Source: Tenericutes bacterium ADurb.BinA124 (GTDB lineage Bacteria; Bacillota_I; Bacilli_A; ML615J-28; CAG-698). From it: DNA of 64,000 nt. The notes below the pieces were generated by a model, which made no database searches, was not told the origin of the DNA, and was given only the letters and a program-made list of their open reading frames with translations. Below are positions 1-30,624 of the stretch, in pieces. The stretch is from assembly GCA_002068415.1 (NCBI GenBank), contig MVZM01000003.1, positions 40,306 through 104,305 of the forward strand, given 5' to 3'. Both the position numbers and the translations under genes were made by a program. How positions within the stretch are numbered: position 1 is the first letter of the stretch; the number at the start of each line of letters is the position of its first letter.

Positions 1-802
1 TGGTAACAGTCCCGACATAATATTGACCTTCTTGAGTTAAACTCAATAAAGAAGCACCACCAAGAGCATCTTGCGTAGTAACGGCAGCTGGTACCGATAC
101 TTCTTCAACTCTAAGCGGATAATCCCCCGTTTTAACATGATAGTAATTAACGGCGCCATAAGCATTAGTTAAATCAGCGGCATCGAGAGAACCTAGTTCG
201 GTATTAGAAGCCGAAGTCGGTAACTCATAAATAATGGGGGAATCACTGGACCCAGCCTTAATTACCGAAATTCTTGTAGAGTCGGCGGCATAGTATCTTA
301 TTGCTCCAGAATCCGACGTAATTGTTTCGCCTTTTGCATTCACAAACGAACTGACATCGCAACTCCAAAGTTTACCGGTCGAAAATAGTGTTGCTTCTTT
401 CCAGTAAATAACTAGTTTTTCACTATTTTTCGTTCGTATTTTTAAATTGAATTGAATATAACCACTGGCAGCACTGTCGTCGTAACCTTTAATTGTTTTA
501 CCATCAACTGAAGTATTGGCTTGATATTTAAAACTAGGATATTGGGGGGGATAATGAGTCGATTCAATGTCATAACCGTTGAAAAGATAACCATTGATAT
601 GTTCAGTCGATAAATTTGTAAACCAGTTAATTCCATCGAGTGACATATCTAAACCTTCACCGGCTGTTACCGTAGCACTAAAGGATTCAACCTTATTGGT
701 ATTATTTAAAGTAAACCAAGCGTAAGTTGTTGTTCCTAAAATGATAGCGGAGAAGACAATTAGTAAGATAGAAATAAAAATTTTATTTGTTATTTTTGGC
801 AT
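1..802 (-). CDS. Paralog 1 of a secreted TasA/camelysin-like protein family (C-terminus beyond the window start). N-terminus: MPKITNKIFISILLIVFSAIILGTTTYAWFTLNNT.
   Basis: Open frame running off the window start. ATG at 802 is preceded by SD GGGTGG. The N-terminal K-rich, hydrophobic, GTTTxAWFT signal resembles the SipW-cognate signal-peptide class (TasA: GGTxAxFxD). Shares the ISLDG and WFT motifs with the ORFs at 901..1815 and 1847..2821. Confidence 0.55.
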   Translation of the reverse strand, partial: MPKITNKIFISILLIVFSAIILGTTTYAWFTLNNTNKVESFSATVTAGEGLDMSLDGINWFTNLSTEHINGYLFNGYDIESTHYPPQYPSFKYQANTSVDGKTIKGYDDSAASGYIQFNLKIRTKNSEKLVIYWKEATLFSTGKLWSCDVSSFVNAKGETITSDSGAIRYYAADSTRISVIKAGSSDSPIIYELPTSASNTELGSLDAADLTNAYGAVNYYHVKTGDYPLRVEEVSVPAAVTTQDALGGASLLSLTQEGQYYVGTVT

Positions 803-900
803 CTTAACCACCCTAATTCAATGTAATAAATTCAACATATTAAGAGAGAGGAGAAGTATAGAAGCCTATAATTCTCCTCTTGATATTAGAAATAGTCTAA

Positions 901-1815
901 TTATGCGTTAGTGTTTTTGAATACTAAGCCAATTGATAAAGTATCATCTAAAATAGCGTTAAAAGCATTTTGATCCCAACCTTCTAACCAAATAACGACA
1001 CTTACTGAACCGGTCCAATTTTTGGCAGCTCCTGTTAAAGTTATTAATTCATTATTGTCTAGGTCAGCTGGATCAGTAACAGTATTAGGAATAGCTGCAC
1101 CTGCAGGAACTGTTTGCACTACACCTTTAGCTGCGTTATAAGATTTTTGACCGGCTGTTAAAGCTTCTAATTCCGCTTTGCTTTTTTGCCCTAAAACAGT
1201 ATTTCCTTTAGAATCAAAATTCTCGGCTAATTCATAAATTACTGGATTATCAGCGCCGCCCTTAATAGAAATACGAGCAGCATTGGCAGCATAACGAGGT
1301 AAGTTAGCATCTCCTGCGGTTACGCTAGGAGTAGTTGCTCCAACGGCATCTGTAAAGCTAGCATCAGCTGTCCATTGTTTTCCAGTTGAAGTAATCGTAG
1401 CATTATTCCAATAAATTTTCGGAGCTATATCGGTATCATCCTTAGAACGGAAGTAAAGAGTAAATTTAATATAGTGGGTTCCAGCAGCCTCATTAACGCC
1501 TGTTGCTCCATCCATTAATGTAAAAGCCAGTCCGTCTGTCGAAGTTACTAAATCTAATTTGAAAGTTGAAGCATATTTACCAGTGCCAGCAGCGAATAAA
1601 AATTCTTCAATTTTAGCTTCAGTAAGAGTTGTATACCAATTGGTTTGATCTAATGAAATTTCAATACCTTGACCAGCGGTAACAGTTGCATTGAAAGGTG
1701 ATACAGTAGCGGTATTACTTAAAGTGAACCACGCGAAAGTAGTGGTGCCAAGAGCGATAACTGCAAAAGCGACAGTTAAGATCGAAATAAATAATTTGTT
1801 TGTTAATTTTCTCAT
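901..1815 (-). CDS. Paralog 2, secreted TasA/camelysin-like protein (304 aa). SipW-cognate-type signal LGTTTFAWFTLSNT; C-terminal motif IWLEGWDQNAFNAI.
   Basis: ORF track. RBS AGGAGA is 7 nt upstream of the ATG at 1815. N-terminal signal and C-terminal WLEGWD block are shared with neighbouring paralogs. Thr/Ala/Gly-rich mature region typical of beta-rich fibre subunits. Confidence 0.6.
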   Translation of the reverse strand: MRKLTNKLFISILTVAFAVIALGTTTFAWFTLSNTATVSPFNATVTAGQGIEISLDQTNWYTTLTEAKIEEFLFAAGTGKYASTFKLDLVTSTDGLAFTLMDGATGVNEAAGTHYIKFTLYFRSKDDTDIAPKIYWNNATITSTGKQWTADASFTDAVGATTPSVTAGDANLPRYAANAARISIKGGADNPVIYELAENFDSKGNTVLGQKSKAELEALTAGQKSYNAAKGVVQTVPAGAAIPNTVTDPADLDNNELITLTGAAKNWTGSVSVVIWLEGWDQNAFNAILDDTLSIGLVFKNTNA

Positions 1816-1833
1816 TTTTTTCTCCTATTTTTC

Positions 1834-1848
1834 TTTTTTTTTTTTTTT
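1834..1848 (-). repeat. Homopolymeric A15 tract (T15 on the plus strand) directly after the stop codon of paralog 3 and about 16 nt upstream of the paralog 2 RBS.
   Basis: Counted directly: 15 consecutive T at 1834..1848 on the plus strand. Confidence 0.9.
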
Positions 1849-2821
1849 AATCCGTGATGGACTTACCAGCCCGGAATTTTAATTGGATTCTAATTACATC
1901 ATTCACGATTGCATCGAAGCAATCTGCATCCCAACCTTCTAACCAAATATTCATGGTAACTTTACCAACATAATAAGTTTGGCCCTTACTATCTTTTTGG
2001 TCACTCACAATCAACTCCATAATCCTCGAGTTATCACTTACAGGAATGTAGGGGTTGTTTGGGGAAAATTTAGTTAGTTCATAAACCGTTTCGGGTTTCT
2101 GAGCTGGTGCTTCAATGATTCGACTCATTCGTTTACTAATGTAATCTAATGCACCGTACGAAACTCCGTATCCTCTGAGAGGATCTCCACTCGGATCAAT
2201 TATCACCTTTCTTAAAGATGAAGGAATCCGGGTGTCATAGATATTGTCATCGTGAACTTGTTCTACAAAAGCAATTCGCACTGCTTTACTAGCATAGTAA
2301 GTATTCCTTGTTCCTTCATGAACAACATCATTAATTGTATCCGTTCCATTAACGAAGGTCAGATCGGCCTTCCAACTTCTCCCGAGGGATACCACAAAGG
2401 TCCCATCACGTCCAGTATCAAATTCAACATCATTACTTATGTTATCAACGAGGTAAACAAATCGTTCAGCGGCTGTGGTGCGAAACCACATTGTGATAGC
2501 GACATAGTCACGGTTGGGGATAGCCTCCCCAAGACCGGTTGGACCTCCTGAACTGAAAGTTATACCATTGATAGAAGTAACATCATGCATTTGCAAGTTG
2601 GTTAACTGCTTAGCAATCAACTCACCCGGCAACTTGTTGTAGTAAGAAATACCATCTAAGGAAATTTGTAAGTCTTCGCCATTAGTGACATTAAGGACTA
2701 AGCCATCGGCGACACCCGTGTTGGACATCGTAATCCAAGCGAAGGTTACCGTCCCAAGCATGATTGCTGAAAGAGTAAGCGATAAAATGGATAATAGTAA
2801 TTTATTAACTAATTTGTTCAC
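1847..2821 (-). CDS. Paralog 3, secreted TasA/camelysin-like protein (324 aa). Signal LGTVTFAWITMSNT; C-terminal NIWLEGWDADCFDAI. GTG start.
   Basis: ORF track. GTG start with GGTGA SD. Same N- and C-terminal motif architecture as paralogs 1 and 2. Confidence 0.55.
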   Translation of the reverse strand: MNKLVNKLLLSILSLTLSAIMLGTVTFAWITMSNTGVADGLVLNVTNGEDLQISLDGISYYNKLPGELIAKQLTNLQMHDVTSINGITFSSGGPTGLGEAIPNRDYVAITMWFRTTAAERFVYLVDNISNDVEFDTGRDGTFVVSLGRSWKADLTFVNGTDTINDVVHEGTRNTYYASKAVRIAFVEQVHDDNIYDTRIPSSLRKVIIDPSGDPLRGYGVSYGALDYISKRMSRIIEAPAQKPETVYELTKFSPNNPYIPVSDNSRIMELIVSDQKDSKGQTYYVGKVTMNIWLEGWDADCFDAIVNDVIRIQLKFRAGKSITD

Positions 2822-2859
2822 GTTATTCTCTCATCACCCAATTTCCTTAAAGTGTATTT

Positions 2860-3564
2860 CTATTCCTCAGCGCCTACAATATCAAATTTCATCTGAATCC
2901 TAATCATCCCCCCTAATATTGAATCGACACAATCCGGATCTTCACCTTCCAACCACATAATTACACTATATTTTTTATACATGTGGGGTCGGAGGTTGGC
3001 AATCTTTCCTCTCGTCACAATTTCATCATCGATGAAGTAATTAGCCTTCGGCATCTCTTTCGGGTAATCATAGGGAACCGTATCAGGCTTTTGATACAAA
3101 TACTCATCGGTATCATCTTCGATAATTAATATTCTAACGGCTTCATCAACATTTTTGTAAGTATCAGTTATTTTTAAATGATAACCAACATCCACGGTTT
3201 CACTGCCAATGTTCTTGACATAGAAGGTATAGGCAACATAACGATAATCTTCATCGATATAATCGCCATCCGTTGCTTTAATCTCCGATAGCTTTAACCA
3301 GGAATAAGTAATATCTTTCACATCGATAACGGGATTAGCTAACAATCTTGGGGAAGGAGCTAAGAATTTATCGTCACTAGAAAGGATGATGCCACGGGTG
3401 AATGAATCGGGGTCAATCGACATAACGAAGTTTCCGGCTTGTTGACCATAGAAGGTGATGATGGCAATGGCTATTGATAGAAACGCCGTAATCAGCAAAC
3501 CGATGGTCACAGCTGTTGTTCGGACAGCAAATTTTCTAACTCCAAGCATTTTGGAAAGCCGCAT
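2860..3564 (-). CDS. Paralog 4 (234 aa), first gene of the operon. Divergent N-terminus with a single TM anchor (TAVTIGLLITAFLSIAIAIITFY) instead of a cleavable SipW-type signal. Retains the family C-terminal block MWLEGEDPDCVDSI...IRIQMKF.
   Basis: ORF track. ATG at 3564 with SD AAAGGCGG. The C-terminal about 30 aa align to paralogs 2 and 3. Its position and membrane-anchored N-terminus suggest an anchoring or accessory subunit (TapA-like role, by analogy only). Confidence 0.5.
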   Translation of the reverse strand: MRLSKMLGVRKFAVRTTAVTIGLLITAFLSIAIAIITFYGQQAGNFVMSIDPDSFTRGIILSSDDKFLAPSPRLLANPVIDVKDITYSWLKLSEIKATDGDYIDEDYRYVAYTFYVKNIGSETVDVGYHLKITDTYKNVDEAVRILIIEDDTDEYLYQKPDTVPYDYPKEMPKANYFIDDEIVTRGKIANLRPHMYKKYSVIMWLEGEDPDCVDSILGGMIRIQMKFDIVGAEE

Positions 3565-3584
3565 TCAAACACCGCCTTTCTTTG

Positions 3585-3685
3585 TGGAAATAAAAAATAG
3601 CCAGTATCATTCTAATAATGACAACTGGCTACCATTTCAGGCCCTTTAGCTTTGCGTCCCTAGATTTCTCTAAGTTTGCCTTTTA
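3585..3685 (-). promoter_or_regulatory. c-di-GMP-I (GEMM) riboswitch, copy 1 (proximal to the operon), with a terminator-type expression platform.
   Basis: Minus-strand RNA: AAGGCAAACUUAGAGAAAUCUAGGGACGCAAAGCUAAAGGGCCUGAAAUGGUAGCCAGUUGUCAUUAUUAGAAUGAUACUGGCUAUUUUUUAUUU. The core GGCAAAC-N5-GAAA-N4-GGGACGCAAAGC matches the conserved GEMM-I aptamer (compare V. cholerae Vc2 GGCAAACCAUUCGAAAGAGUGGGACGCAAAGCC). It has a GNRA-capped P2 hairpin CUUAGA-GAAA-UCUAGG, then an 8-bp hairpin UAGCCAGU/ACUGGCUA followed by U6, which I read as an intrinsic terminator. Sits 20-30 nt upstream of the SD and ATG of the 2860..3564 gene. Confidence 0.8.
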
Positions 3686-3734
3686 CATATCTTCTTGATA
3701 AAAAGATAAATAAAACTTATTAAATTATATCCTT

Positions 3735-3835
3735 AAAGAAAGAAAAAAGCCAGTATCATTCTTACAATGACAACTGGCTACCATTTCAGGCCCTTTAGCT
3801 TTGCGTCCCTAGATTTCTCTAAGTTTGCCTTTGAA
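3735..3835 (-). promoter_or_regulatory. c-di-GMP-I (GEMM) riboswitch, copy 2 (distal). About 95% identical to copy 1 and also followed by a hairpin plus U-tract.
   Basis: Minus-strand RNA: AAAGGCAAACUUAGAGAAAUCUAGGGACGCAAAGCUAAAGGGCCUGAAAUGGUAGCCAGUUGUCAUUGUAAGAAUGAUACUGGCUUUUUUCUUUC. Same conserved core as copy 1. Tandem arrangement separated by about 65 nt. Confidence 0.8.
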
Positions 3836-3859
3836 CATTTTTCTATCTTAAGTGCCTCC

Positions 3860-3888
3860 ATTCTAACACACCAATAAAATCTTGTCAA
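3860..3888 (-). promoter_or_regulatory. Sigma-A-type promoter driving the tandem riboswitches and the paralog operon (-35 TTGACA at 3888..3883, 17-nt spacer, -10 TAGAAT at 3865..3860).
   Basis: Read on the minus strand: TTGACAagattttattggtgtgtTAGAAT, about 25 nt upstream of riboswitch copy 2. Confidence 0.55.
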
Positions 3889-3930
3889 CAAAAATACAAA
3901 AATAATTATAAATAGTTCAACTATAATGGG

Positions 3931-5430
3931 TTATTTCTTTTTGTCAACACTTTCTTCCGGTTCTTTTAAAAGTTTTCCCTTCCAAGATTGACCTTCGATA
4001 TAGGATTTCAAATCATCACCTGACATCGGATAACCAAAATAATATCCTTGAACGACATTAATACCAAAATTGCTAACTTTCTCCAGCATTTCGTAATTCT
4101 CCACTCCTTCAGAAATAACAACCTTTTGGTTATTACGAGCAAAACCAACAAGCAGGGTGGCAAATTTTTCCGTCATATAGGACTCTTGCGTATCGCTTAA
4201 GAAAGACCGATCCAGTTTAATGATGTCAATCGGCATTTTTTCCAGTTTGGCAAGAGTTGCAAAATCCAGACCAAAGCCGTCAATAGCAATTTTAAAACCG
4301 ACATCTTTAAGTTTTTGAATATTCACCATAATTTCATCATAGCGCTCAAACAAGGCAAACTCCACAATTTCCAAAGTGATATTGGAAGCTTGTAAACGGT
4401 ATTTGCGTAAAATCTTCAAGAAATCAGCAACCAAAGTTAAAACAATCAATTGTTTAGGGCTCAGGTTTAAGGATAAGCGTAATTCTAGTTCCGGAAAATC
4501 TTTTTTAATTTCAAAGTATTGTTTAATGAGGTTTTCAATGCCCCATAAACCAACCCAATAAATATCCCCGGATTGCTCCATGATATTGATAAATTGGTGA
4601 GGAGACAAAACACCATGTTCCGGATGATTCCACCTTAATAAGGCTTCCGCCCCATATAAAGTTCCGTCATCGACATTGATAATAGGTTGATAATAAAGCA
4701 AAAACTCTTTATTCTTCATGGCTGTTTTAATTTGATAATAATAAGCCAAGTTTTCAAATTCCGTTTCATTGATGTCTTCGGAATAGAGCATGAAATCATT
4801 TCCGCCCTTTTTCTTCAACAAATAAATGGAAATCTTTAGAGAATTAATTAATTGTTTTAAACTACTTCCATGTTTGGGGTAAAAGCAGACCGCCACACAA
4901 GCCGTGGGGGTCACAAAGGTATCACTATAAATTTTAATCGGCGTGCGAACAACTTCTAACAGTTTCTTCGCCACTTCCAAACTTTGCAAGCGGTCATAAT
5001 CACCTTTTAAGAAAACCAAGAATTCATCACCGGTTAAGCGTGCCATTTGTACACGCTTCGGCAAAACATGGCTGAGGTTTTGGGCAATTTTCTCTAAAGC
5101 CCGTTCCGCTTCCTTTTCCCCAAAGGCATTGATAATATCGGTAAATTTATCAATATCGACATAAATGAGGGCGAAGGTCGTTTCCAACGAGCCCTTGGCA
5201 ATATAGCCGGAAATGGCACTCGTCAATTCGGACTTCGACAATAAGCCTTCTAACAAAACCGTCTTCTCTTCACGGAACTTAGCTCGTTCGCGAAAAACCG
5301 AGCGAATTAAAAAATATCCGAGCGTCGCCGTAACTGCGAGGGCAATGATCGAAAAAAAGATATAGGCACCATCATTAAAGTTGGCAAGAAACATGGGATC
5401 ACCTCTTGTATATTGTATCACAATCATCAA
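3931..5430 (-). CDS. Membrane-anchored GGDEF-EAL domain protein (499 aa) with non-canonical motifs: TGDEF instead of GG(D/E)EF; EAL present (EALLRW) but DGFGLD instead of DDFGTG.
   Basis: ORF track. N-terminal TM helix; RLTGDEFLVFL; YGAEALLRW. Likely a c-di-GMP phosphodiesterase or a degenerate receptor. Confidence 0.75.
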   Translation of the reverse strand: MMIVIQYTRGDPMFLANFNDGAYIFFSIIALAVTATLGYFLIRSVFRERAKFREEKTVLLEGLLSKSELTSAISGYIAKGSLETTFALIYVDIDKFTDIINAFGEKEAERALEKIAQNLSHVLPKRVQMARLTGDEFLVFLKGDYDRLQSLEVAKKLLEVVRTPIKIYSDTFVTPTACVAVCFYPKHGSSLKQLINSLKISIYLLKKKGGNDFMLYSEDINETEFENLAYYYQIKTAMKNKEFLLYYQPIINVDDGTLYGAEALLRWNHPEHGVLSPHQFINIMEQSGDIYWVGLWGIENLIKQYFEIKKDFPELELRLSLNLSPKQLIVLTLVADFLKILRKYRLQASNITLEIVEFALFERYDEIMVNIQKLKDVGFKIAIDGFGLDFATLAKLEKMPIDIIKLDRSFLSDTQESYMTEKFATLLVGFARNNQKVVISEGVENYEMLEKVSNFGINVVQGYYFGYPMSGDDLKSYIEGQSWKGKLLKEPEESVDKKK

Positions 5431-5456: not shown

Positions 5457-8048
5457 TTATTTTTCTTTTGTTTTTGATTTCACTTTTATTTCTTTAGTTT
5501 TATTAATATTATACTCATTAATGAGTTTTAAAGCGACACTTTCGGGAACAGCGGCACTGATTAAATGCCCTTGAATGACATTACAGCCGCTTTTAACCAA
5601 AAATTGGTTTTGTTTATCATCTTCAACACCTTCCGCAATCACATCCAAGTCCAAGCTCTTGGCCATGGAAATAACTTTGGAAACAATAGCCCGCGAGAAT
5701 TTATCGGTATTGAGATGACGAACAAATTCCTTATCAATCTTAATGGTATCAATCGGTAAATCTTTTAAGTAGAGCATCGAACTGTAACCGGTCCCGAAGT
5801 CATCCAAATGAATATTAAAACCATGATTTTTCAAAAGCTTTAATTTTTCAATCACCGAGTCAAAATTAGTCATCAAGAAAGTTTCGGTGATTTCCACCGA
5901 AATGGCATGCGGTTTTAATTCAAAGCGGTCGTATATTTCCACAATCTCGCTGACAAACCCGGCTTGCAATAATTGAACTGGAGAAATATTGATGGAAATG
6001 TGCACATTATAAGGTTCAAATTCTTTCGCAATCCGGAAAGTATCTAAAATAACGAATTTACCGATTTCGATAATTAAGTTGTTTTGTTCAGCTAAGGCAA
6101 TAAAATGAGCCGGTGACTCCAATAAATACTTCGGATTATTCCAGCGAATTAAGGATTCAAAACCAACAATCCGCTCTTGTTCATTATCAAACTGCGGTTG
6201 CAAATACATGACAAATTCTTTTTCTTGAATGGCCTTGACCAAATCGGTTTCCATAATCTGTTCGCGGGTAATGTACTGTCCCAAACCGAGGTCATAAGTA
6301 ACATATTTAGCCGTCCGCGAGTTTTTGGCCCGTTTTAAAGCAACCATCGCATGATCATAAGCCATGGTTGGTGTTAAATTGCCATAGATTTCACTTTCAA
6401 TATTAAAGATTCCCATTTTCACATCCAAAATTAATAAGTTCTTATTAATTTCGACCGGATGCGCTAACAATTCGAGAGTGCTTTCCACCCATTTTTTAAC
6501 TTCATTAAAACTTTCAACGCGTTCAAACAAAACCACGAAGTTATCCGCTTCCGTATTAAAGAGCGTCGCATTCTTGTCTTTTAAGGATTCCTTAACAATA
6601 TTAGCAAGGGTAATTAAGGTTTCATCACCGATTTTCATCCCGAATAAATTATTGATGTTTTTAAAGGAACTGATATCAAAAGCAACCAAGGAATTAAGCA
6701 ATCCCAATGATTCCTCATTGTTAAACAAGTCCTTTAGTTTGGCTATTAAATAGTTTTTATTCGGTAATTTCGTCGTTTTTGTGTAGAGAGCCATATTCCG
6801 GTTCATCAAATAATCTTGTTCGCGGGCCGTAATATCTTCCCCTAACAAATAATAACCGAAGCCGGAGCGTAAGGGAATAAAGCGAATGAAGATTTCACTG
6901 CCAGAAATGGAAGTAAAGGAAGCCGTAAAGGGCCGTTGTTTGCGTAAATACGAAAGCACGGTCGTACTATCCACTTCGGTTTTAAAATCGCTTAAATATT
7001 GATAATCTTGATAGGACTGCAAATTGCTTTTACAAGTCTTATTAAAGTAGCGGATTTTCCCGCTGGCGGACACCCGAACAATATAGGGTTTGGAATAATA
7101 ATAAATCAAGCGCGCCGCTTCCACATCGGAGTTTTTCGTTCTTAGTAAATGATAAGTGCCAAATAAAACTACCGCAAACAAGAGCGCCACTAACACCAAA
7201 ACAATAATGAGCGACATCCCTAAATAACTCATGGAACTTAAAACATCAGTTTTTGCGAAAACATGGACCACAAACAAATGGCGGGTGGAAAAATCCTTTG
7301 ACAAAGGTGAATAAGCGAGGTAGGATTGTTTGCCATCAAAATTAACCATCGCTATTCCGGTTTTTCCGGCATAGAGATTGTCAACAATTTGGGCAATGTC
7401 TTCTTCGGCACTATTACCGCGGACATAATGTTCAAACAATTTATCACGGATAGTAAGGTGATCAATTTGGTAATTAATCAATCCGTCTTTACTAATGATG
7501 AAATACTGATTTTTGGGCGCATTGCTTACTTCAAGAAAGATGGGATCAAAATATTTAATGGCATCAAAAACAGCAATGTAATTGTCAATTTTGAAAAAGC
7601 CATAAAGGGTGGTATCGGTACTATCAATAAAGGCATCCGCAAACGCATAAATCGCTACCCTTTGATTATAATAGTCCGTTGACAAAAATTCTGTATTATA
7701 GAAATAATCAGTGCCATCAATAATGAAGCGATCCGCTTCCACACTACCAAAATACACATAGGGGTTGGTGCCGACCCTTATTTTCGCCTTTTGTGCATTT
7801 AATTGGCTGAGGATATCACCATCATTGGGATCGAGATTATTAATAACATCAGTTAATTTATCATAATCATAATTGATCTTTAAATCGACATTAAGGGCAA
7901 TCTTTTGATTAATGTAAAGCATGTTTTCCGCCGCTTTACCTTCGATAAAATGATCGGCAATGAAATAATAAGCTCCATAAGCGACCAAAGCGACGATTAT
8001 TAAGATGGCAGAGAACAAAATCGATATTTTAACGGTATAAGACTTCAT
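5457..8048 (-). CDS. Large membrane sensor protein (863 aa): signal-anchor, extracytoplasmic domain, second TM, degenerate GGDEF-like region, canonical EAL phosphodiesterase domain (ESLIRW...HLDDFGTGYSS).
   Basis: ORF track. EAL-domain motifs present. SD AGAGGAG 8 nt upstream of the ATG at 8048. Confidence 0.75.
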   Translation of the reverse strand: MKSYTVKISILFSAILIIVALVAYGAYYFIADHFIEGKAAENMLYINQKIALNVDLKINYDYDKLTDVINNLDPNDGDILSQLNAQKAKIRVGTNPYVYFGSVEADRFIIDGTDYFYNTEFLSTDYYNQRVAIYAFADAFIDSTDTTLYGFFKIDNYIAVFDAIKYFDPIFLEVSNAPKNQYFIISKDGLINYQIDHLTIRDKLFEHYVRGNSAEEDIAQIVDNLYAGKTGIAMVNFDGKQSYLAYSPLSKDFSTRHLFVVHVFAKTDVLSSMSYLGMSLIIVLVLVALLFAVVLFGTYHLLRTKNSDVEAARLIYYYSKPYIVRVSASGKIRYFNKTCKSNLQSYQDYQYLSDFKTEVDSTTVLSYLRKQRPFTASFTSISGSEIFIRFIPLRSGFGYYLLGEDITAREQDYLMNRNMALYTKTTKLPNKNYLIAKLKDLFNNEESLGLLNSLVAFDISSFKNINNLFGMKIGDETLITLANIVKESLKDKNATLFNTEADNFVVLFERVESFNEVKKWVESTLELLAHPVEINKNLLILDVKMGIFNIESEIYGNLTPTMAYDHAMVALKRAKNSRTAKYVTYDLGLGQYITREQIMETDLVKAIQEKEFVMYLQPQFDNEQERIVGFESLIRWNNPKYLLESPAHFIALAEQNNLIIEIGKFVILDTFRIAKEFEPYNVHISINISPVQLLQAGFVSEIVEIYDRFELKPHAISVEITETFLMTNFDSVIEKLKLLKNHGFNIHLDDFGTGYSSMLYLKDLPIDTIKIDKEFVRHLNTDKFSRAIVSKVISMAKSLDLDVIAEGVEDDKQNQFLVKSGCNVIQGHLISAAVPESVALKLINEYNINKTKEIKVKSKTKEK

Positions 8049-12246: not shown

Positions 12247-13122
12247 TTAAATTTGACGAATCAGAGCTCTTCCTTCTTGGTTTTCAATTAATTTAATTGC
12301 TCTTGTAGATGAAATGGTAATTGTGGAAGCATGATAGATGCTCAACACTAAATCTTGTAATATCGCGTCATCTTCTAAACGAACAATTTTTAATCCCATA
12401 TCTATACAATATTGCAACGAAAAATGTCTAGCATGGGATTTGGCATTCATATTTAATTTTTTTACAATTTCTTTGATGATGTTAGTCTTGTTTTCGTCTT
12501 TAAACATATACTTTTCTAACCATTCTTGTACAAGAATTTTTGAAAGTTTCATAGCATCAAACACTCGATATAAAAAAGCTGCGGGGTATTTCGACAACAA
12601 TTGACGCCAATATTCAGAAGACTGAGGATTATCAGTTAACTCTTTTTTGGCATTCTTAAATTCCTCTATGATGTTGAAGGCAGGTATGCCACCAAATTGA
12701 GGATCAACGGGACCTAAGCAGGATTGCTTTCCCATTATTATTTCCTTCGCAGCACAAGCGAACATTGTCCCTGCTGACATTGCCATATGGGGAACAATTA
12801 CCCTAACATCATTATTAAACACCGAATGCAAATAATTAACAATGTGTTCTGTTGCTGTAGGATCACCACCGGGTGAATGTAAAATAATATCTACACCTTG
12901 ACTTTTATTCAATTTATTGACAGTTGTCATAAAACCAGGCATATCCAAATCGGTAATATCCGTTCCTGGCATTTGCGGTTTTTCTAGCCATCCAGAATAA
13001 TATAGGATGGTGTTTCGCCCCGTGTGATTAGATAGTTTTTTTAAGTAAGTTCTTCTAACCAAGTCAACATTATTATTATTTGTTTTTATCTCTTCAAGTA
13101 TTTCATTCCATGACCCCATCAA
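12247..13122 (-). CDS. SDH-family (S49-like, ClpP-fold) serine protease, 291 aa
   Basis: ILHSPGGD...MAMSAGTMFA is the ClpP/SppA-type Gly-Gly-Asp ... Ser-Ala-Gly catalytic neighbourhood. The size matches the serine-dehydrogenase-proteinase family. No signal peptide. Confidence 0.6.
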   Translation of the reverse strand: MMGSWNEILEEIKTNNNNVDLVRRTYLKKLSNHTGRNTILYYSGWLEKPQMPGTDITDLDMPGFMTTVNKLNKSQGVDIILHSPGGDPTATEHIVNYLHSVFNNDVRVIVPHMAMSAGTMFACAAKEIIMGKQSCLGPVDPQFGGIPAFNIIEEFKNAKKELTDNPQSSEYWRQLLSKYPAAFLYRVFDAMKLSKILVQEWLEKYMFKDENKTNIIKEIVKKLNMNAKSHARHFSLQYCIDMGLKIVRLEDDAILQDLVLSIYHASTITISSTRAIKLIENQEGRALIRQI

Positions 13123-13307
13123 ATGCCTCCTTCAATTACCTGTGTTGAAGAAGAAAAAGTCATTTTTAACGATTGGTCTTTACCAGTATGGAGTTTATTT
13201 GGTAATACATATGAACCAATAAAATCAACATCTTTATTATTTATTTTTAAATCATCTAAAATTTTAATTATTTCTTCAATAGTTAATTCTTTATTTGTTT
13301 TTTTCAT
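13119..13307 (-). CDS. Small hypothetical protein (62 aa), translationally coupled to the protease by an ATGA overlap.
   Basis: Strong RBS AAGGAGA 7 nt upstream of the ATG at 13307 (MKKTNKELTIEEIIKILDDLK...). The track ORF begins 16 codons earlier without an RBS. 4-nt overlap with the protease start. Confidence 0.5.
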   Translation of the reverse strand: MKKTNKELTIEEIIKILDDLKINNKDVDFIGSYVLPNKLHTGKDQSLKMTFSSSTQVIEGGI

Positions 13308-13545
13308 TTTCTTTCTCCTTGTCGATTTAAAGTAAAACAACTTATATGGTTGCAAATAATTGTTTTATTTGATTTTGTTATAATAATAATATATCAAAAA
13401 AAAGGGCTTGTCAAATATTAGTTTTTGAAAAAATTATTAGTGCAAATATCAACTTAAAATTGACCACCCTCACCAATTAATAGTCAAATGCTTATCTTTT
13501 TTAGTATAATAATTACATTTATCATTAGGGGAAGAAATAATAATT

Positions 13546-13929
13546 TATGAATCTGATGATGGAGCAACTCATATTGAAGTAAAGTTGGAAGATGATAATA
13601 TTTGGTTAACTCAGCAACAAATGGCTGAACTTTTTAGCACTTCTAGGCCCAATGTAGTTATTCACATCGGAAATATCTATTCTGAGGGGGAACTTGATAA
13701 AATTTCAACCTATAAGAATTTTAAACAGCTTCGAAAAGAAGAAAATAGAATGGTTGAAAAGGAGATACCTTTTTATAATTTTGATATGATTATTTCTCTG
13801 GGATATAGAATTAAATCATCTTTAGCCATTAGATTTAGAATATGGGCAACTGAAAAACTTAAAGAATATATGATTAAAGGTTTTACAATGGCATCTTCAG
13901 CAGAAATTATCATTAATTCACTAATGTAA
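13546..13929 (+). pseudogene. Truncated RhuM-family (virulence protein RhuM-like) gene fragment. Corresponds to residues about 20-135 of the intact paralog at 28012..28725. Unrelated C-terminal tail.
   Basis: MNLMMGATHIEVKLEDDNIWLTQQQMAELF...MIISLGYRIKSSLAIRFRIWATEKLKEYMIKGFTM aligns almost residue-for-residue with the 237-aa protein at 28012..28725 and then diverges and terminates. Confidence 0.7.
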
Positions 13930-13962
13930 TAGCTCGGTATTTTTTCGATAGTGTTAATTAAT

Positions 13963-14012
13963 CAACCATTCTGTCACCTCATAAAAACTCTTCTTGTTGT
14001 AACATAAAAGCC
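13963..14012. repeat. Right copy of the 49-bp direct repeat flanking the roughly 2.1 kb islet.
   Basis: AACCATTCTGTCACCTCATAAAAACTCTTCTTGTTGTAACATAAAAGCCC. Confidence 0.85.
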
Positions 14013-14043
14013 CCCATAATATCAATCATTTTGGGGGCTTTAT
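14008..14043. terminator. Bidirectional terminator hairpin (AAAGCCCCCA...TGGGGGCTTT) downstream of the ABC exporter operon.
   Basis: 9-bp G/C-rich stem with flanking A and T runs. Confidence 0.7.
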
Positions 14044-14047
14044 CATT

Positions 14048-14902
14048 TTATGATTTTTTAGTGCGGAGACGAAGGATGGAAATTCCGTAAAACAGAATCC
14101 CCATAACTACTAAAAACATGATGGCAAATAGCGGAGTAACTTGCCAATTCCCAATTTTAATCACCACTCCCATTTCAAGGGCAAATCTGGACATTTCGGC
14201 TTCCGGGGCTTGCGCAAACACTTCGCCCATCGGTTCTTTCATAATGATGGTGCGGAATAAGGCCACCGAATAGGTCCCCGGAAAAACTTTCATTAGTTTT
14301 TGAATAAAATCCGGTAAGGCCCCAACAGGAACATAAATGCCCATTAAAAACCCAATAATCGTTCCAATGATAATGGACAAGGTCGAAAAAGCATTTTGAG
14401 TACGAATAAAGGAAATGACTAAAAACAAGATGGCGGAATTTGCAAAAGTCGATAAAACAATCACACCGAAGACTTTTAATAAATCAAATAAACTTAAAAG
14501 CTCGCCACCATTGATGATGATATACAGTTCACCAAACACCAGAGCCAAACAAGACATGATAGTCCCGATGACAAACGAACTGATTAAATAACCGCCAATG
14601 AGCGTTGATTTCTTGATTGGCGACGAATAAAAATCCTTAACGATGTTTTTGGAATAATCCTCAACAATAACTCCTAAAGCTCCCAAGGTTGATGTCACAC
14701 TGGAAGCGGCTACTAAACCCGCTACAATCCAGCTATCCATTAAAAACCTTACTCCCGTAACTCCCCCTTCCCAGTTAGACATCATGTCCCCTAAGAAAAG
14801 CACATATAAACTCATAATAATAATGACACTTAAAGACGAGAAAAAAACGGAGGTTTTATCTCGAAAGAACAAACGGATATTTCGTTTCGCAATATTAATC
14901 AT
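14048..14902 (-). CDS. ABC-2 type transporter permease (284 aa, 6 TM)
   Basis: ORF track. Polytopic. 8-nt overlap with the upstream ATPase gene. Confidence 0.7.
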   Translation of the reverse strand: MINIAKRNIRLFFRDKTSVFFSSLSVIIIMSLYVLFLGDMMSNWEGGVTGVRFLMDSWIVAGLVAASSVTSTLGALGVIVEDYSKNIVKDFYSSPIKKSTLIGGYLISSFVIGTIMSCLALVFGELYIIINGGELLSLFDLLKVFGVIVLSTFANSAILFLVISFIRTQNAFSTLSIIIGTIIGFLMGIYVPVGALPDFIQKLMKVFPGTYSVALFRTIIMKEPMGEVFAQAPEAEMSRFALEMGVVIKIGNWQVTPLFAIMFLVVMGILFYGISILRLRTKKS

Positions 14903-15821
14903 AATCTTCTATTCCCCTTCCGGTGATTGATAAAAAGGCATCATCCATTGAGCCATTGACAACCGAAAAACTGATGATGTCATCTTGGTAACGGTTGATT
15001 AAAGGAATGGCATCCACGCTCCTAAGCAATCTGATTTTCACAACATCGGCAATCACCGTATATTCTAATTTTTCTTTTTTTAAAGCCTTTACAAAGGGCT
15101 CAAGTTCTTTGGGTTTCATCATCAAAGTATCGCGGGAATGTTTATTTTTTAGTTCCGTCGGCGTTCCCATTGCCGCAATACTTCCACCGACAATTACCAC
15201 GACATAATCAGCATTATCCGCTTCTTCCATATAATGGGTTGTGAGGAAGATGGTCATTCCAAAATCCGCACGCAGTTTTTCAATCGTTTTCCAAATCTGT
15301 TGTCGGCTCATCGGATCAAGTCCGGTTGTCGGTTCATCTAAAAACAAGATTTTGGGAACATTGATTAATGCGCGGGCAATATCAACACGGCGTTTTTGGC
15401 CGCCACTTAAGACTTTATAACGTCGGTTTTGAATATCTTCCAAATTTGTCATTTGTAAAGCATTCTGAACTTTGGCTTCGGCTTCTTTAGCCGAAAGACC
15501 ATATAAAGCGGCTCGAAACAATAAATTTTCTTTCACGGTCAATAACTCATCTAAGACCTTGTCTTGGAAAACAACGCCGATGGCTTTTTTTATCTCAAAA
15601 TCATCTTTGCCGATTTCCCAACCGTCAATTAGAATTCGACCCGAGTCCGCCTCTAAAATGGTGGTTAAAATATCAATGGTGGTGGATTTCCCCGCCCCAT
15701 TGGGACCTAAAAAGGCAAATAAATCGCCTTTTTTGACACTAAAATTGATGCCATTAACGGCATGAACATCTTTGTAACTTTTATGCAAATTACTAACTTC
15801 AATAATTTTTTCACTATTCAT
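14895..15821 (-). CDS. ABC transporter ATP-binding protein (308 aa)
   Basis: Walker A GPNGAGKST, signature LSGGQKRRV, Walker B ILFLDEPTTGLD. Confidence 0.9.
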   Translation of the reverse strand: MNSEKIIEVSNLHKSYKDVHAVNGINFSVKKGDLFAFLGPNGAGKSTTIDILTTILEADSGRILIDGWEIGKDDFEIKKAIGVVFQDKVLDELLTVKENLLFRAALYGLSAKEAEAKVQNALQMTNLEDIQNRRYKVLSGGQKRRVDIARALINVPKILFLDEPTTGLDPMSRQQIWKTIEKLRADFGMTIFLTTHYMEEADNADYVVVIVGGSIAAMGTPTELKNKHSRDTLMMKPKELEPFVKALKKEKLEYTVIADVVKIRLLRSVDAIPLINRYQDDIISFSVVNGSMDDAFLSITGRGIEDYD

Positions 15822-16789: not shown

Positions 16790-19348
16790 TTAAGCATCTT
16801 CTTCCATTAATTCAATAAATAAGGCGGCTAAATAAGGATCAAACTGCGTTCCCGCACAAGCTTTGATTTCCGCTAAAGCTTCTTCCGTTGTTTTGGTGGG
16901 ACGGTAGGAACGCTCTTGGGTCATGGCATCGAAAGCATCAACAATGCTGATGATGCGTGATAAGAGGGGAATTTCTTGACCTTTTAAACCTTGTGGATAG
17001 CCGGAACCGTCCCATTTTTCATGATGAGACAAAACATACTCGGCAATCGAACTCAGTTCCGGTGATGCTTTGGTAATGCGGTAACCAATTCCCGGATGTT
17101 TTTTGATTTCCTCCCATTCCGTAGCATTCAATTTCCCCGGCTTATTTAAAATATTACTATCAATGCCGACTTTGCCAATATCATGAAGCGTTGCCAATAA
17201 GGATAATTCATCAAGACCTTTTTGATTAAGGCCGAGTTTCTTGCCAACTCTTTCGGATAAAAGCCGCATTCGTTCCGCATGAGCTTCTGTTTCTTGGCTC
17301 TTTTCAAACATGGTGGCGGTAATGGACGAGACGAAGGAACTATGTAAACTGTTTCGTTCCAAGAGTTTGCGCTTATACATAAAATCTTCTGCTGTTTTTT
17401 GTACATTACTAATACTTTCCGTTACGCTTTCTTTAGTTGCAAAGCCCAAGGAGAGACTAATAATTGAACCTTTGCCGAGAGTATTGCTTTTATCTTTATC
17501 ACAGCGATCTTGAATCTTTTTTAAATAATAATAGGCGGTTTCGCTATCCGTATTCGGTAAAAGAACGGTAAATTCATCGCCTCCGGTGCGGGCGACCACA
17601 TCATCTTCTCGAACGGAGGTTTTGATAATTTCCGCTGTTCTTTTTATTAAGTAATCACCTTCATCATGACCAAAGGCATCATTGGTTAGTTTTAAACCAT
17701 TGATATCAGCAACAATAATCGACAATGGTAAATACTGTAGATGGTCTAAGCGGGCGCGTTCTTTATCAAAATACCCCCGATTATAAAGCCCTGTCAACAT
17801 ATCATGTTCACTCATATATTGGATTTCAATTTGTTTGCTTTTTTGTTCACTAATGTCAAGGATAAGTCCTTCTAAAGATTCCACAAATCCCATTTCATTA
17901 TAAACCGGTTGCCCTTGTTCAAGAACCCATTTTCGTTCTCCAGTGGCGGTGACAATGACGAACTCTTCCCGCACTGCTTGCCGATTTTTGACGGCATCAC
18001 CCCACACTTGCCACAAATGTTCTTGAAACTCGGGGGCAATTAATTCATTGAACGAAAGATCCCGATTATTGATGATGTTTTCCGGGCGATGGCCGGTTAA
18101 TTCGAAACATCCTTCCGACACAAATTGCATCGTCCAATTGCGATCAAAATTGCATTTATAAGCCATTCCCGGCAAATTAGATAACAAAACACTATGACTG
18201 TGAACACTTTCTTTCAACTGTTTTTCAACGGCTTTACGTCGCGTAATATCAAAGAAAGTAACCACGACGCCGGTAATTTGACCTTGTTGGAAAAGGGGAT
18301 GAGCAAAAACTTCAACACTGAAACTCGTGCGGTTCTTCCGCCAAAATACTTCTTTGTCTGAGTAAAAACCGGCTTTGGTTTTAAAGACTTGTGTAATTCC
18401 ACATTCTTCAACGGGAATTATTTGATTGAGAACATTATGGTGGTGGAAGAGTAAATGGGCATTTTTGCCAAGCAAATCACTTTCCCGTTCGTAACCAAGC
18501 AAGCGACGACAAATGAGATTACAGAATTTAATATTTCCTTCCAAATCAATAACAAAAAGGGCGGCAGTGGTGGTATTAAAAATGGATTTAAAAAATTCTT
18601 CGTTGCTGAAAAAATGACCGGGGGATGATGGGTTTTTCTTTAACAATTGAATATGAGCAATTAAACCCCTTACTTTTCCGGAAGCATTGCGCAAGTAAGT
18701 AATCTTATGAGAAGTAAGCAACGAAGTTTGGTTTTTATGAATCATTTCCACTTCCAATGTAAAAGGTTTTTCATCTTCATGGCCGTGGTCATCTTCAAAG
18801 AGTTGCATAAATAATGTTAGGGAAGAAACTGCAATTAAATTAAAAATGCTTTTTTGTTTGATTTCTTCCACCGAATAACCTAATAAAGAAACAACACCCG
18901 GACTAGCATAAGCGATTTGGTAATCGTTCCGGACAATTAAACTCATTTCGCCACTTTCTTCATAATCATGGTCGCTTAATTGATGGCTAATTTCTTGGTA
19001 ACAAATAATGACTTGATTTTTCTTGATTGATGAAGCACGCGCAAAATAATAAATCTTACTAAAGGCCGAATAACCTTTAAACTGCTTTTGGGTTTTGGTG
19101 TTTACCACTTCACAAAACTGCTTCCACAATTCCCATTCATCGAAAAAATCATTAAAGACCGCTCGACCTGCTTTTTTTAACACATGACTTCTATTTAAAC
19201 CCCAAAAGCCAAGCATGGTTTCATTGATTTCTAAAAAAGAAAAATCAATAATTTTAGATGCTTGTTTTTTCACCTTTAAAATAGCTAAACCGATGTCGTT
19301 TTCGCCAAACAATTGCTTCCATTGTGAAGATTTCATGATGTACCTCAT
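16790..19348 (-). CDS. Cytoplasmic multi-domain c-di-GMP protein (852 aa): PAS/PAS - GGDEF (RTGGDEFTVLL, canonical) - HD-GYP (HHEKWDGSGYP).
   Basis: Motifs read from the translation. No TM segments. Confidence 0.85.
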   Translation of the reverse strand: MRYIMKSSQWKQLFGENDIGLAILKVKKQASKIIDFSFLEINETMLGFWGLNRSHVLKKAGRAVFNDFFDEWELWKQFCEVVNTKTQKQFKGYSAFSKIYYFARASSIKKNQVIICYQEISHQLSDHDYEESGEMSLIVRNDYQIAYASPGVVSLLGYSVEEIKQKSIFNLIAVSSLTLFMQLFEDDHGHEDEKPFTLEVEMIHKNQTSLLTSHKITYLRNASGKVRGLIAHIQLLKKNPSSPGHFFSNEEFFKSIFNTTTAALFVIDLEGNIKFCNLICRRLLGYERESDLLGKNAHLLFHHHNVLNQIIPVEECGITQVFKTKAGFYSDKEVFWRKNRTSFSVEVFAHPLFQQGQITGVVVTFFDITRRKAVEKQLKESVHSHSVLLSNLPGMAYKCNFDRNWTMQFVSEGCFELTGHRPENIINNRDLSFNELIAPEFQEHLWQVWGDAVKNRQAVREEFVIVTATGERKWVLEQGQPVYNEMGFVESLEGLILDISEQKSKQIEIQYMSEHDMLTGLYNRGYFDKERARLDHLQYLPLSIIVADINGLKLTNDAFGHDEGDYLIKRTAEIIKTSVREDDVVARTGGDEFTVLLPNTDSETAYYYLKKIQDRCDKDKSNTLGKGSIISLSLGFATKESVTESISNVQKTAEDFMYKRKLLERNSLHSSFVSSITATMFEKSQETEAHAERMRLLSERVGKKLGLNQKGLDELSLLATLHDIGKVGIDSNILNKPGKLNATEWEEIKKHPGIGYRITKASPELSSIAEYVLSHHEKWDGSGYPQGLKGQEIPLLSRIISIVDAFDAMTQERSYRPTKTTEEALAEIKACAGTQFDPYLAALFIELMEEDA

Positions 19349-29209: not shown

Positions 29210-29980
29210 TTATTTATGAACAAAGAAATAGGCAAACGGGACGAAAACCGCACCACCAATGATGTTCCCGATGGTTACTGGTAATAAATTCATGAGCATT
29301 TGACCAATGGTGATTTGGCTACCTAACATTTTCGCATAAGGTAGTAAAAACATATTGGCAACACTATGTTCATAACCGCTTAAAACAAATAACCCCACCG
29401 GCAAAATGGCTCCGGCGATTTTGCCACCAAGCGTTTTAGCAGCAAAAGTTAAATAGACGGCTAAACTAACTAAAATATTGCCCAAAATGCCGCGAGCGAG
29501 GGCTTCCAAAAAACTCAGTCCGACTTTTGTGATGGCTAAATTTAAAACAAACATTTCCACAGTTCCGGAAATCACTTGGGCGGAAAAAAGTAAGGACACT
29601 AAAAGAAGAGCACCGATGAAATTGCCTACATAGACAATTCCCCAGTTTTTTAAAACCGCCAAAAAACGGTACTTCTTCCCCAACCAGCCAAAGGTAATTA
29701 AGCAATTGCCTGTAAACAAATCACCGCCCGCCAAAATAATAATCACTAAGCCAATCGGAAAGACAAACGAACCGATTACTTTTCCTAAAAAGTGAAGCTC
29801 GGAAGTAGAGCTCCCTGCTAAAACCAAATAACCATAATAACCTAAACCAATAAAAAAACCGGCAAGGATGGCAGAAATAAGTAATTTCCCCAACGGTTTT
29901 CGGACTTTATTTTCCCCCACTTTAATCGCTTCCTCAACAACTTCTTCTGGAGAATACAACAAATGATTGTTTATTTCCAT
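29210..29980 (-). CDS. Formate/nitrite transporter (FNT) family channel, 256 aa
   Basis: 6-TM FocA/NirC-like protein. Last gene of the hut operon. Confidence 0.7.
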   Translation of the reverse strand: MEINNHLLYSPEEVVEEAIKVGENKVRKPLGKLLISAILAGFFIGLGYYGYLVLAGSSTSELHFLGKVIGSFVFPIGLVIIILAGGDLFTGNCLITFGWLGKKYRFLAVLKNWGIVYVGNFIGALLLVSLLFSAQVISGTVEMFVLNLAITKVGLSFLEALARGILGNILVSLAVYLTFAAKTLGGKIAGAILPVGLFVLSGYEHSVANMFLLPYAKMLGSQITIGQMLMNLLPVTIGNIIGGAVFVPFAYFFVHK

Positions 29981-30612
29981 AATTCATTCACCAAAAACAA
30001 AGCTTGCTTAGCTATCGCTTTTCCCTTTTCTTCATATTCCTTAGCTTTAGTTAAATAAGTATCCGCTATCTTAGCATCCATAAAACCGGCCATATTAGTG
30101 CGCACATTGAAAACTGCCCCCACCAAACCCGCTTCCAACATCAACACAGCGACCCCAAAATCCGAGCCCGTGCTTTTCACAATCACCGGAAACAGCGGTA
30201 AAGCGATTTCCAAAGCGGTGAAAGCCGTTTTTGCCGTTAACAGCGGGACTTCCGTGGCATGAATAGTCGCTTGGTCGATGGCTTGTTTTCGGATAGCTAT
30301 GTGCTCATCGCTTTCTTTCGGTAAGCGGTAAGCTTCCATAATCTGCTGATAAGAACCAGCATCACTTTCAACCAAAGTTAAAGCTTCCTGCTTTAAAGCG
30401 CCCAATGTTGATAGTTGTTTATAAAAGTCATCTTTCACCTTTTCGTCAAGTTGAAGAAATTTCTTTTTCGTCATGGTCAGTTTTCCAACCATTCCCAATA
30501 AACTAATGCCCATGGCAACACCGAAGGCGGCAGCACTTCCGCCACCGGGAATCGCTGTTGGCGCATCAATTTCATCTAAAAACATTTTCAGGGGCATGGC
30601 AATTAATTTCAT
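29971..30612 (-). CDS. Formiminotetrahydrofolate cyclodeaminase-family protein (FTCD C-terminal-domain-like), 213 aa
   Basis: PGGGSAAAFGVAMGISLLGMV near the N-terminus is characteristic of the cyclodeaminase/cyclohydrolase family. Confidence 0.65.
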   Translation of the reverse strand: MKLIAMPLKMFLDEIDAPTAIPGGGSAAAFGVAMGISLLGMVGKLTMTKKKFLQLDEKVKDDFYKQLSTLGALKQEALTLVESDAGSYQQIMEAYRLPKESDEHIAIRKQAIDQATIHATEVPLLTAKTAFTALEIALPLFPVIVKSTGSDFGVAVLMLEAGLVGAVFNVRTNMAGFMDAKIADTYLTKAKEYEEKGKAIAKQALFLVNELWK

Positions 30613-30624
30613 CTTGTTCTCCTT

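Follow-up and report, generated by a model that had tools for sequence, protein, structure and literature searches.

Our analysis suggests that the first 3,900 nucleotides of a 64,000-nucleotide stretch from Tenericutes bacterium ADurb.BinA124 (contig MVZM01000003.1, positions 40,306 to 104,305; hereafter the window) are the 5' module of a gene cluster conserved in the Acholeplasmatales, and that this cluster probably encodes a surface-protein assembly system induced by cyclic di-GMP (c-di-GMP). The module lies on the minus strand and comprises a promoter, two tandem c-di-GMP-I riboswitches and four protein-coding genes, here called A to D. All the features that an initial annotation of the window had listed in positions 1 to 3900 are present: the four tandem paralogs are found as open reading frames and are linked by homology in hhalign comparisons, and the promoter and the two aptamers of the proposed riboswitch gate are found as well, each aptamer with its own terminator. 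The idea of a four-gene operon stands only in part, since the four genes are real but form just the first portion of a cluster of at least 12 genes. The features of the module, in the order of transcription, are the following (E, expectation value).

3860..3888, minus strand: sigma-70-type promoter (TTGACA, 17-nucleotide spacer, TAGAAT, extended -10 TG; 11 of 12 positions match)
3766..3839, minus strand: c-di-GMP-I aptamer 1 (RF01051, 60.2 bits, E 2.7e-09, full-length model match)
3743..3779, minus strand: intrinsic terminator 1 (AGCCAGU...ACUGGCU hairpin, then a U run; minimum-free-energy fold of -29.8 kcal/mol, z -2.9)
3617..3690, minus strand: c-di-GMP-I aptamer 2 (RF01051, 64.2 bits, E 3e-10)
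3592..3630, minus strand: intrinsic terminator 2 (same design as terminator 1; -30.5 kcal/mol, z -3.1)
2860..3564, minus strand: gene A, 234 amino acids (transmembrane helix, then a beta-sandwich ending WLEGxDPD...IRIQMKF)
1847..2821, minus strand: gene B, 324 amino acids (leader MNKLVNK, hydrophobic core, GTVTFA|WI; beta-rich domain ending IWLEGWDADCFDAI..IRIQLKF)
901..1815, minus strand: gene C, 304 amino acids (leader ...ALGTTTFA|WFTLSNT; Thr/Ala/Gly-rich paralog of B; C-terminal block IWLEGWDQNAFNAI)
1..802, minus strand: gene D, 267 of its 299 codons within the window (leader ...ILGTTTYA|WFTLNNT)

The two aptamers, whose cores are nearly identical, both exceed the gathering score of RF01051 (c-di-GMP-I, or GEMM-I), which is 35 bits. 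The 5' arm of each terminator hairpin is the 3' strand of the second helix of its own aptamer (AGCCAGUU), so that aptamer and terminator share bases and are mutually exclusive, the textbook arrangement of a transcriptional ON switch. From this mutually exclusive pairing we infer that ligand binding would turn the genes on. The ribosome-binding site and ATG of gene A follow downstream of terminator 2. The G before CAAAC and the C in UAGCC are invariant across all the aptamers aligned in this study; we take them to be the c-di-GMP-type residues at positions 20 and 92 of the published numbering.

The proteins encoded by genes B, C and D are mutually homologous (hhalign probability 100%), with E values of 2.7e-44 for B and C and 1e-105 for C and D, D being the closest paralog of C. 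Gene A is linked to these three through the C-terminal block, at an hhalign probability of 87-94%. The conserved WLEGWD block noted in the initial annotation is indeed present at the C-termini of the paralogs (MWLEGEDPDCVDSILGGMIRIQMKF, IWLEGWDADCFDAIVNDVIRIQLKF and IWLEGWDQNAFNAILDDTLSIGLVF); in gene D the corresponding IWVEGWDPDC segment lies just beyond the window edge and is seen in the complete protein of 299 amino acids on a second contig, described below. The LGT[VT]TF/YAW[IF] leaders of the second to fourth genes are also as annotated (LGTVTFAWI, LGTTTFAWF and LGTTTYAWF). AlphaFold2 models of A (predicted local distance difference test score, pLDDT, 86.8; predicted template-modelling score, pTM, 0.76) and B (pLDDT 90, pTM 0.84) contain a single N-terminal helix, spanning residues 3-42 in A, followed by a beta-sandwich, and the WLEGWD...IRIQLKF block forms the last strand, an acidic loop, a short helix and the final strand. 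No family was assigned to any of the paralogs by Pfam or NCBIfam; the 233 homologues of gene A are without a Pfam domain and the 109 homologues of gene B are all hypothetical proteins. The B/C/D family is large: among 1.84 billion clusters searched, 4,250 have representatives that belong to it at E<=1e-3. The representatives include members of 450-780 amino acids (P0484, P0486, P0455, P0489, P0474, P0428 and P0450) that carry C-terminal Listeria-Bacteroides (Flg_new), Big_2 or PKD repeats, as in cell-surface adhesins, which argues for an extracellular and adhesive setting.

The remainder of the cluster is seen on a 111-kb contig of GCA_035414685.1, a metagenome-assembled genome (MAG) labelled "Bacilli bacterium", which encodes the exact gene B protein. 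Between the stretch fetched from this contig (L001) and the window, 1 base in 12,821 differs. The cluster measures at least 11 kb before its giant gene begins, and that gene contributes about another 7 kb; the order after gene D is given below in coordinates of L001.

13075-13806: Sip1, signal peptidase-like protein of 243 amino acids (SipW model E 3e-15, 56 bits against a cut-off of 190; TIGR02228 48.6 bits, just under the cut-off of 51.85)
13838-15382: ATPase of 514 amino acids, a P-loop protein with one N-terminal membrane segment
15399-17279: coiled-coil protein of 626 amino acids, Lys/Glu-rich
next: gene E, 254 amino acids, with a leader of the type of B, C and D
18126-18770: Sip2, 214 amino acids (TIGR02228 75 bits, above the cut-off of 51.85)
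18950-19027, operon strand: riboswitch 3 (59.5 bits; about 6.1 kb beyond the window start)
next: gene F, 216 amino acids, with a leader of the type of B, C and D
next: gene G, 226 amino acids, with a leader of the type of B, C and D
20414 onward: giant protein of 2,387 amino acids, the last gene of the cluster

This arrangement is conserved. A pattern scan across one genome per species yielded 185 relatives, and 80 loci were kept, almost all of them from Acholeplasmatales; these include A. laidlawii 8195, Peloplasma aerotolerans, Mariniplasma, "Tenericutes bacterium MO-XQ", strain zrk7 and many MAGs. Mapping with tblastn shows a constant gene order in about 80 loci: two GGDEF-EAL genes, A, B, C, sometimes D, Sip1, the ATPase, the coiled-coil protein (absent in some loci), E, Sip2, F, G and the giant gene. 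Both signal peptidases are conserved in the related loci, and the GGDEF-EAL pair precedes the cluster in most of the related loci that include upstream sequence. A distant relative in another Bacilli MAG, with 25% identity to B, has the same layout and the aptamers. The cluster is present with one aptamer in the cultured Acholeplasma laidlawii (L064), where the NCBI annotation of the three homologues that were looked up (B, C and the ATPase) reads hypothetical; in strain 8195 these are QOL21_06160 and QOL21_06155 for B and C and QOL21_06140 for the ATPase. Median pairwise identity is highest for the ATPase (66%), followed by A (47%), B (44.5%), C (39%), D (36%), F (33%) and G (31%); the putatively exposed subunits are less conserved than the predicted anchor A. 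The giant protein is about 2,330-2,390 amino acids long (full-length copies at L030 1652-8740 and L018 1806-8795) and begins with a plain hydrophobic leader that lacks the A-W-F motif, and Pfam scans of two full-length copies gave no match at E<=0.01. The coiled-coil partner of the ATPase varies from 600 to 750 amino acids and has no recognisable relative in the family scans; a PDB profile search returned only apolipoprotein-type coiled-coil noise.

RF01051 detects 20 more aptamers in seven related loci, and a covariance model of our own, built from 21 aptamers, finds 146 aptamers in 82 loci (1.35 Mb), every one on the operon strand. A competing terminator that overlaps the aptamer and ends in a T run follows 135 of the 146, so these are predicted to be ON switches. 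Among the 75 A genes with enough upstream sequence, 53 have one to four aptamers within the 800 nucleotides searched: one in 23 cases, two in 17, three in 11 and four in 2, with none at the other 22. Of the remaining 47 aptamers, 40 sit directly after Sip2. This is the position of riboswitch 3, between Sip2 and the genes F, G and giant, and it suggests that the cluster consists of two separately gated modules. Paired positions are filled by pairs in 97.7% of cells across 133 distinct aptamers, compared with 86.1% in shuffles (0 of 500 shuffles reach the observed value) and 13-41% in slid controls, in an alignment that was fitted to the model and so favours the structure somewhat. In the first hairpin, each of the 6 pairs shows changes in both partners, and these compensatory changes support the aptamer helices. 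Taken together, the 4,250 representatives, the gene order in about 80 loci and the compensatory changes indicate that the association is not a chance observation.

Two further features of these loci concern copy number. Many genomes carry two clusters back to back (for example L013, L017, L021, L030 and L035), the first of which is without the coiled-coil gene, Sip2 and a detectable riboswitch ahead of gene A; most of the 22 aptamer-less A genes belong to such first copies. In L057 (8796-9233) and L058 (8776-9227), four tandem c-di-GMP-I aptamers, each with its own terminator, lie upstream of gene A and a fifth lies inside the cluster. For c-di-GMP-I, a 2022 survey of riboswitches in tandem records 347 doublets and 12 triplets (PMC9481103), numbers of copies that these quadruplets exceed. 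Tandem c-di-GMP-I riboswitches are common (PMC9481103), and the regulatory part of the system is therefore not new. The arrays of one to four copies, together with the internal one, make a graded set found in nature in which the effect of copy number on a digital response can be studied.

A leader motif, T-[FY]-A-W-[FI], stands directly behind the hydrophobic core in 71 of 78 B proteins, 54 of 54 C, 30 of 34 E, 30 of 38 F and 33 of 48 G, and the leaders of E, F and G match those of B, C and D (hhalign 93-97%); E, F and G are in addition related to one another over about 200 columns. With Thr at -3, Ala at -1 and then an aromatic residue and Phe, the motif has the layout of GGGTWAAF, the consensus of the TasA family, and hhalign brings the two into register. 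Judged by this layout, cleavage would fall between the Ala and the Trp. The initial annotation had regarded the leader as a SipW-cognate signal. Its resemblance to the T-W-A-A-F of TasA supports this, but the scores with TIGR04088, the model of such signals, are below the cut-off of 19 bits: the D leader reaches 12.5 bits (E 0.13, the third of three weak matches) and the C leader 9.8 bits (E 0.92, the sole match listed), the leaders of B, E, F and G do not match, and the TasA control scores 42.1 bits. Given the in-register motif and the sub-threshold scores, the leader is best seen as a divergent variant that falls outside the class as the curated threshold defines it. The annotation had also predicted a signal peptidase beyond the window start, and a SipW-like gene, Sip1, does follow directly after the fourth paralog on L001. 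In gene A, the motif occurs in just 5 of 77 proteins; the hydrophobic helix lacks A-W-F and carries a conserved iTfYGQ..GNF in place of T-F-A-W-F. The absence of a cleavage-type motif from 72 of 77 homologues fits an uncleaved anchor and agrees with the retained transmembrane anchor proposed for the first gene, and A is predicted to be a membrane-anchored, uncleaved base subunit.

A mechanism can be proposed from these elements. Transcription from the TTGACA/TAGAAT promoter would meet the two c-di-GMP-I riboswitches in series. In the absence of ligand, the 3' strand of each aptamer would pair downstream and form the terminator; with c-di-GMP bound, this strand would be held in the aptamer and the polymerase would read through. 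Two gates in series may make the response steeper and more switch-like. Read-through would yield the product of gene A, whose beta-sandwich would be tethered to the membrane by an uncleaved N-terminal helix, and the products of B, C and D, whose leaders would be cut after T-[FY]-A by the SipW-type peptidases encoded next. The third, internal riboswitch would also open at high c-di-GMP, and E, F and G would be exported and cut in the same way. The freed subunits, of which B, C and D have the WLEGWD strand-loop-strand block in common with A, could then assemble on the A anchor into an extracellular fibre, sheath, matrix, polymer or coat that would serve adhesion, aggregation or biofilm formation of the wall-less cells. 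The neighbouring GGDEF-EAL proteins, probable phosphodiesterases, may set the local c-di-GMP threshold and keep the system off until their sensor domains are silenced. The downstream genes (AAA+ ATPase, coiled-coil protein, three leader proteins and giant protein) probably add an assembly or anchoring module and a tip or adhesin module.

Several results weigh against this reading, and they need to be set beside the alternatives on which they bear. One group concerns the relationship to TasA. The initial annotation had described the paralogs as TasA-like, and membership in the TasA or camelysin family is not supported: PF12389, NF046066 and the NCBIfam TasA and CalY models have no match at E<=1 in any of A to G, although true TasA homologues all carry PF12389. 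In hhalign comparisons with an alignment of 45 TasA-family sequences, B reaches a probability of 9%, G 13% and F 21%, all confined to the leader, and A 0.4%; with leaders removed the values fall below 4%. One might nevertheless view the proteins as divergent true members of the TasA/CalY family (Peptidase_M73), and the cluster as the Acholeplasmatales version of tapA-sipW-tasA, building donor-strand-exchanged fibres. The SipW-type peptidases in the operon, the leader in register with GGGTWAAF and the tYAyf consensus leader of the G family would all fit, and the C-termini of F and G (...ISIASTQWEGAI and ...VEVVQANR) can be likened to that of TasA, which we take to end in ...FSFEATQWNG. However, searches of PDB sequences with the B, G and F family profiles returned noise and did not find TasA, and B, C and D exceed TasA in length by 60-90 residues and have the WLEGWD block that TasA lacks. 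In view of these differences and of the unmatched family models we regard true TasA membership as quite improbable, and rate the cluster instead as a putative SipW-type surface or matrix protein system under c-di-GMP riboswitch control, one that is not TasA/CalY by any curated threshold.

Other identities for the paralogs were considered and set aside. A phage-structural origin was dropped as the paralogs have no match in PHROGs. There is no invariant Lys among the conserved columns, as would be needed for pilins with intramolecular isopeptide bonds. The leaders have an ordinary n-h-c layout without the G-F-T-L-x-E of type IV pilins, and no prepilin peptidase, PilB or PilC is found among the called genes of L001, nor do the cluster genes have such a match in the family scans. 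Spore-coat proteins were rejected for want of a family match; TasA homologues are often annotated as "spore coat protein N", and we know of no cultured Acholeplasma species that forms spores.

A second point against subunit release is that the AlphaFold2 models of A and B show the N-terminus as a plain helix. Proteins B, C and D may instead be uncleaved, single-pass membrane-anchored surface proteins, so that c-di-GMP would induce a coat or a set of adhesins and not a polymer. The A-W-F motif and the WLEGWD block would then serve folding, lateral packing or ligand binding, and the peptidases would process or shed some members. The long helix followed by an independent beta-sandwich fits this proposal, as do the adhesin-type repeats on the longer family members. 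The lineage also fits, since Acholeplasmatales are wall-less and without peptidoglycan (PMC2408644) and a cell would otherwise lose such proteins. In addition, the structural similarity to fibre subunits is weak: Foldseek gives no PDB match better than E 0.07, and the match lists of A and B contain, at low scores, chaperone-usher pilins, CanX and DUF1102 tube proteins, along with a Sulfolobus thread subunit in the list of B and an archaeal bundling pilin in that of A. Each of these is a subunit of a fibre built by strand donation. On the other hand, nearly every locus long enough to show them has one or two dedicated peptidases of the endoplasmic reticulum (ER)/archaeal type, the small residues at -3 and -1 (T-x-A) fall exactly at the TasA cut site and are missing only in gene A, and several paralogs that share one terminal block are the usual layout of a multi-subunit fibre. 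On balance we think an uncleaved coat or set of adhesins rather unlikely.

The third difficulty is the ATPase. We know of no SipW-dependent system that has an McrB-like ATPase. Its family profile matches the AAA+ core of McrB in the PDB (6hz4, 6ut6 and 7vsr, E 7.5e-4 to 2e-3), Pfam AAA_5 matches weakly, and the candidate-defence model PDC-M26A of PADLOC matches at 3.4e-37, the sole PADLOC match among the proteins scanned. These similarities could mean that the cluster, or the ATPase and coiled-coil pair within it, is an McrBC-like defence or mobile island among surface-protein genes. The position of the ATPase speaks against such an origin: in about 60 loci it is flanked by Sip1 on one side and by gene E or the coiled-coil gene on the other, it lies downstream of the riboswitches and on the same strand, and it has an N-terminal membrane segment and is the most conserved protein of the cluster. 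The paralogs, moreover, lack PHROG matches, and no nuclease, integrase or repeat boundary was seen. The fixed position and the high conservation argue that the pair belongs to the system and was not inserted as a defence island, an origin that we consider highly improbable. The membrane segment of the ATPase is followed by basic residues, which suggests that the AAA+ domain should face the cytoplasm.

Finally, riboswitch control is not universal, since no aptamer was detected at the 22 A genes mentioned above, mostly of the variant without the coiled-coil gene and Sip2. A search of the open-access literature also found no link between Acholeplasma and a c-di-GMP riboswitch, SipW or TasA, and no experiment on a homologue. 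With these points taken into account, a c-di-GMP-induced surface-protein assembly system is still the probable function of the cluster. A bolder version of this proposal would make the cluster an unrecognised surface-appendage machine of wall-less Acholeplasmatales, with A as its base, SipW-cleaved subunits of a new fold (B to G), assembly, anchoring or retraction powered by nucleotide on the cytoplasmic side through the AAA+ and coiled-coil proteins, a terminal adhesin of about 2,300 amino acids and up to five riboswitches. We consider this version unlikely as a whole and offer it as speculation; if true, Mollicutes would gain their first defined c-di-GMP output, and fibre building without a cell wall would have a new mode.

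The two genes immediately upstream of the promoter, which the initial annotation had described as c-di-GMP-turnover genes, do encode GGDEF and EAL domains (Pfam E 1e-19 to 1e-64), and both GGDEF motifs are degenerate.

3931..5430, minus strand: GGDEF-EAL protein with one transmembrane segment (EAL 5.5e-58, GGDEF 5.1e-19; degenerate RLTGDEF, EALLR)
5457..8048, minus strand: GGDEF-EAL protein of 863 amino acids (EAL 3.6e-64, GGDEF 3.3e-20; degenerate EADNF; ESLIR, DDFGTG, EGVE)

The public gene call of the first protein starts at 5394 (487 amino acids), and the second has an N-terminal sensor region flanked by membrane segments. The combination of degenerate GGDEF motifs with largely intact EAL sites suggests that the pair are phosphodiesterases or sensors rather than cyclases: the first is probably a c-di-GMP phosphodiesterase or sensor and the second probably a signal-regulated phosphodiesterase. 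Elsewhere in the window, a protein of 852 amino acids (16790-19348, minus strand) combines PAS-PAS-GGDEF-HD-GYP domains with canonical RTGGDEF, HDIGK and GYP motifs. It lies 13 kb away, the third c-di-GMP enzyme within 17 kb of the operon, and is a possible source of the signal. The regions 29971-35454 and 40803-61018 encode ordinary-looking metabolism in which nothing unusual was seen, including histidine utilisation (aromatic amino acid lyase, urocanase) and a starch/glycogen cluster (GH9, alpha-amylases, glycogen phosphorylase, pullulanase and an ATP-binding cassette permease).

According to a 2008 report, A. laidlawii differs from other mollicutes in encoding 14 GGDEF/EAL proteins (PMC2408644). 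In the open-access literature we found no paper that states what c-di-GMP controls in this species, and in the searchable literature no description of the present cluster. The cluster is the best candidate so far for a c-di-GMP output in Acholeplasma-type bacteria and, as it occurs in a cultured strain, it makes the question of what c-di-GMP does in Acholeplasma testable. It also gives a functional context to the unannotated proteins encoded in it, none of which, the giant protein included, belongs to a Pfam family. If its products form fibres, SipW-dependent matrix systems would extend to wall-less bacteria and to a new subunit family, and one would have to ask how such a fibre is held to the cell and what an AAA+ NTPase is required for.

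Among known systems, the closest in layout are tapA-sipW-tasA of Bacillus subtilis and sipW-tasA-calY of B. cereus, in which a dedicated ER/archaeal-type signal peptidase is encoded in one operon with its substrates, as here. The leaders also end alike, in T-x-A followed by an aromatic residue and Phe (GGGTWAAF there, TTTFAWF here), and an accessory or anchor protein precedes the main subunits, a place held by TapA in B. subtilis and, by prediction, by gene A in the present cluster. Unlike these systems, the Acholeplasmatales cluster encodes mature domains without detectable homology to theirs and with a WLEGWD C-terminal signature, has four to eight leader-bearing paralogs instead of one or two, and adds a second peptidase, an McrB-like AAA+ protein, a coiled-coil protein and a giant protein. 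Its host has no cell wall for anchoring, and its control is by c-di-GMP riboswitches, whereas tasA is controlled by SinR and Spo0A.

The sipW-bsaA-bsaB-bsaC operon of Clostridium perfringens encodes several putative extracellular proteins, of which BsaA forms a polymer needed for biofilm and is proposed to be secreted in a SipW-dependent manner (PMC7395162). Compared by description, it shares with the present cluster a private signal peptidase within an operon of extracellular proteins; no ATPase is described there. The regulatory region is most similar to Bc3-5 of Bacillus thuringiensis, a triple-tandem c-di-GMP-I riboswitch upstream of cspABCDE that was shown experimentally to give a more digital ON response (PMC4759541). 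In both cases near-identical c-di-GMP-I aptamers, each with its own terminator, stand in series ahead of a surface-protein operon. The Csp proteins are described as surface proteins attached to the cell wall, and a cell-wall anchoring motif is present in four of them (PMC4759541), while here the host is wall-less and the export signal is of the SipW type. The structural scores against donor-strand fibres (AbpA 7ueg, Sulfolobus threads 7pnb, CanX 9h8b and the CS1, CFA-I and type 1 pilins) lie in the range of generic beta-sandwiches, and the cluster differs from those systems in having no chaperone, usher or archaeal assembly genes. What is new in the Acholeplasmatales cluster, relative to all of these, is the subunit family, the many paralogs, the two peptidases, the AAA+/coiled-coil pair, the giant protein and the wall-less host.

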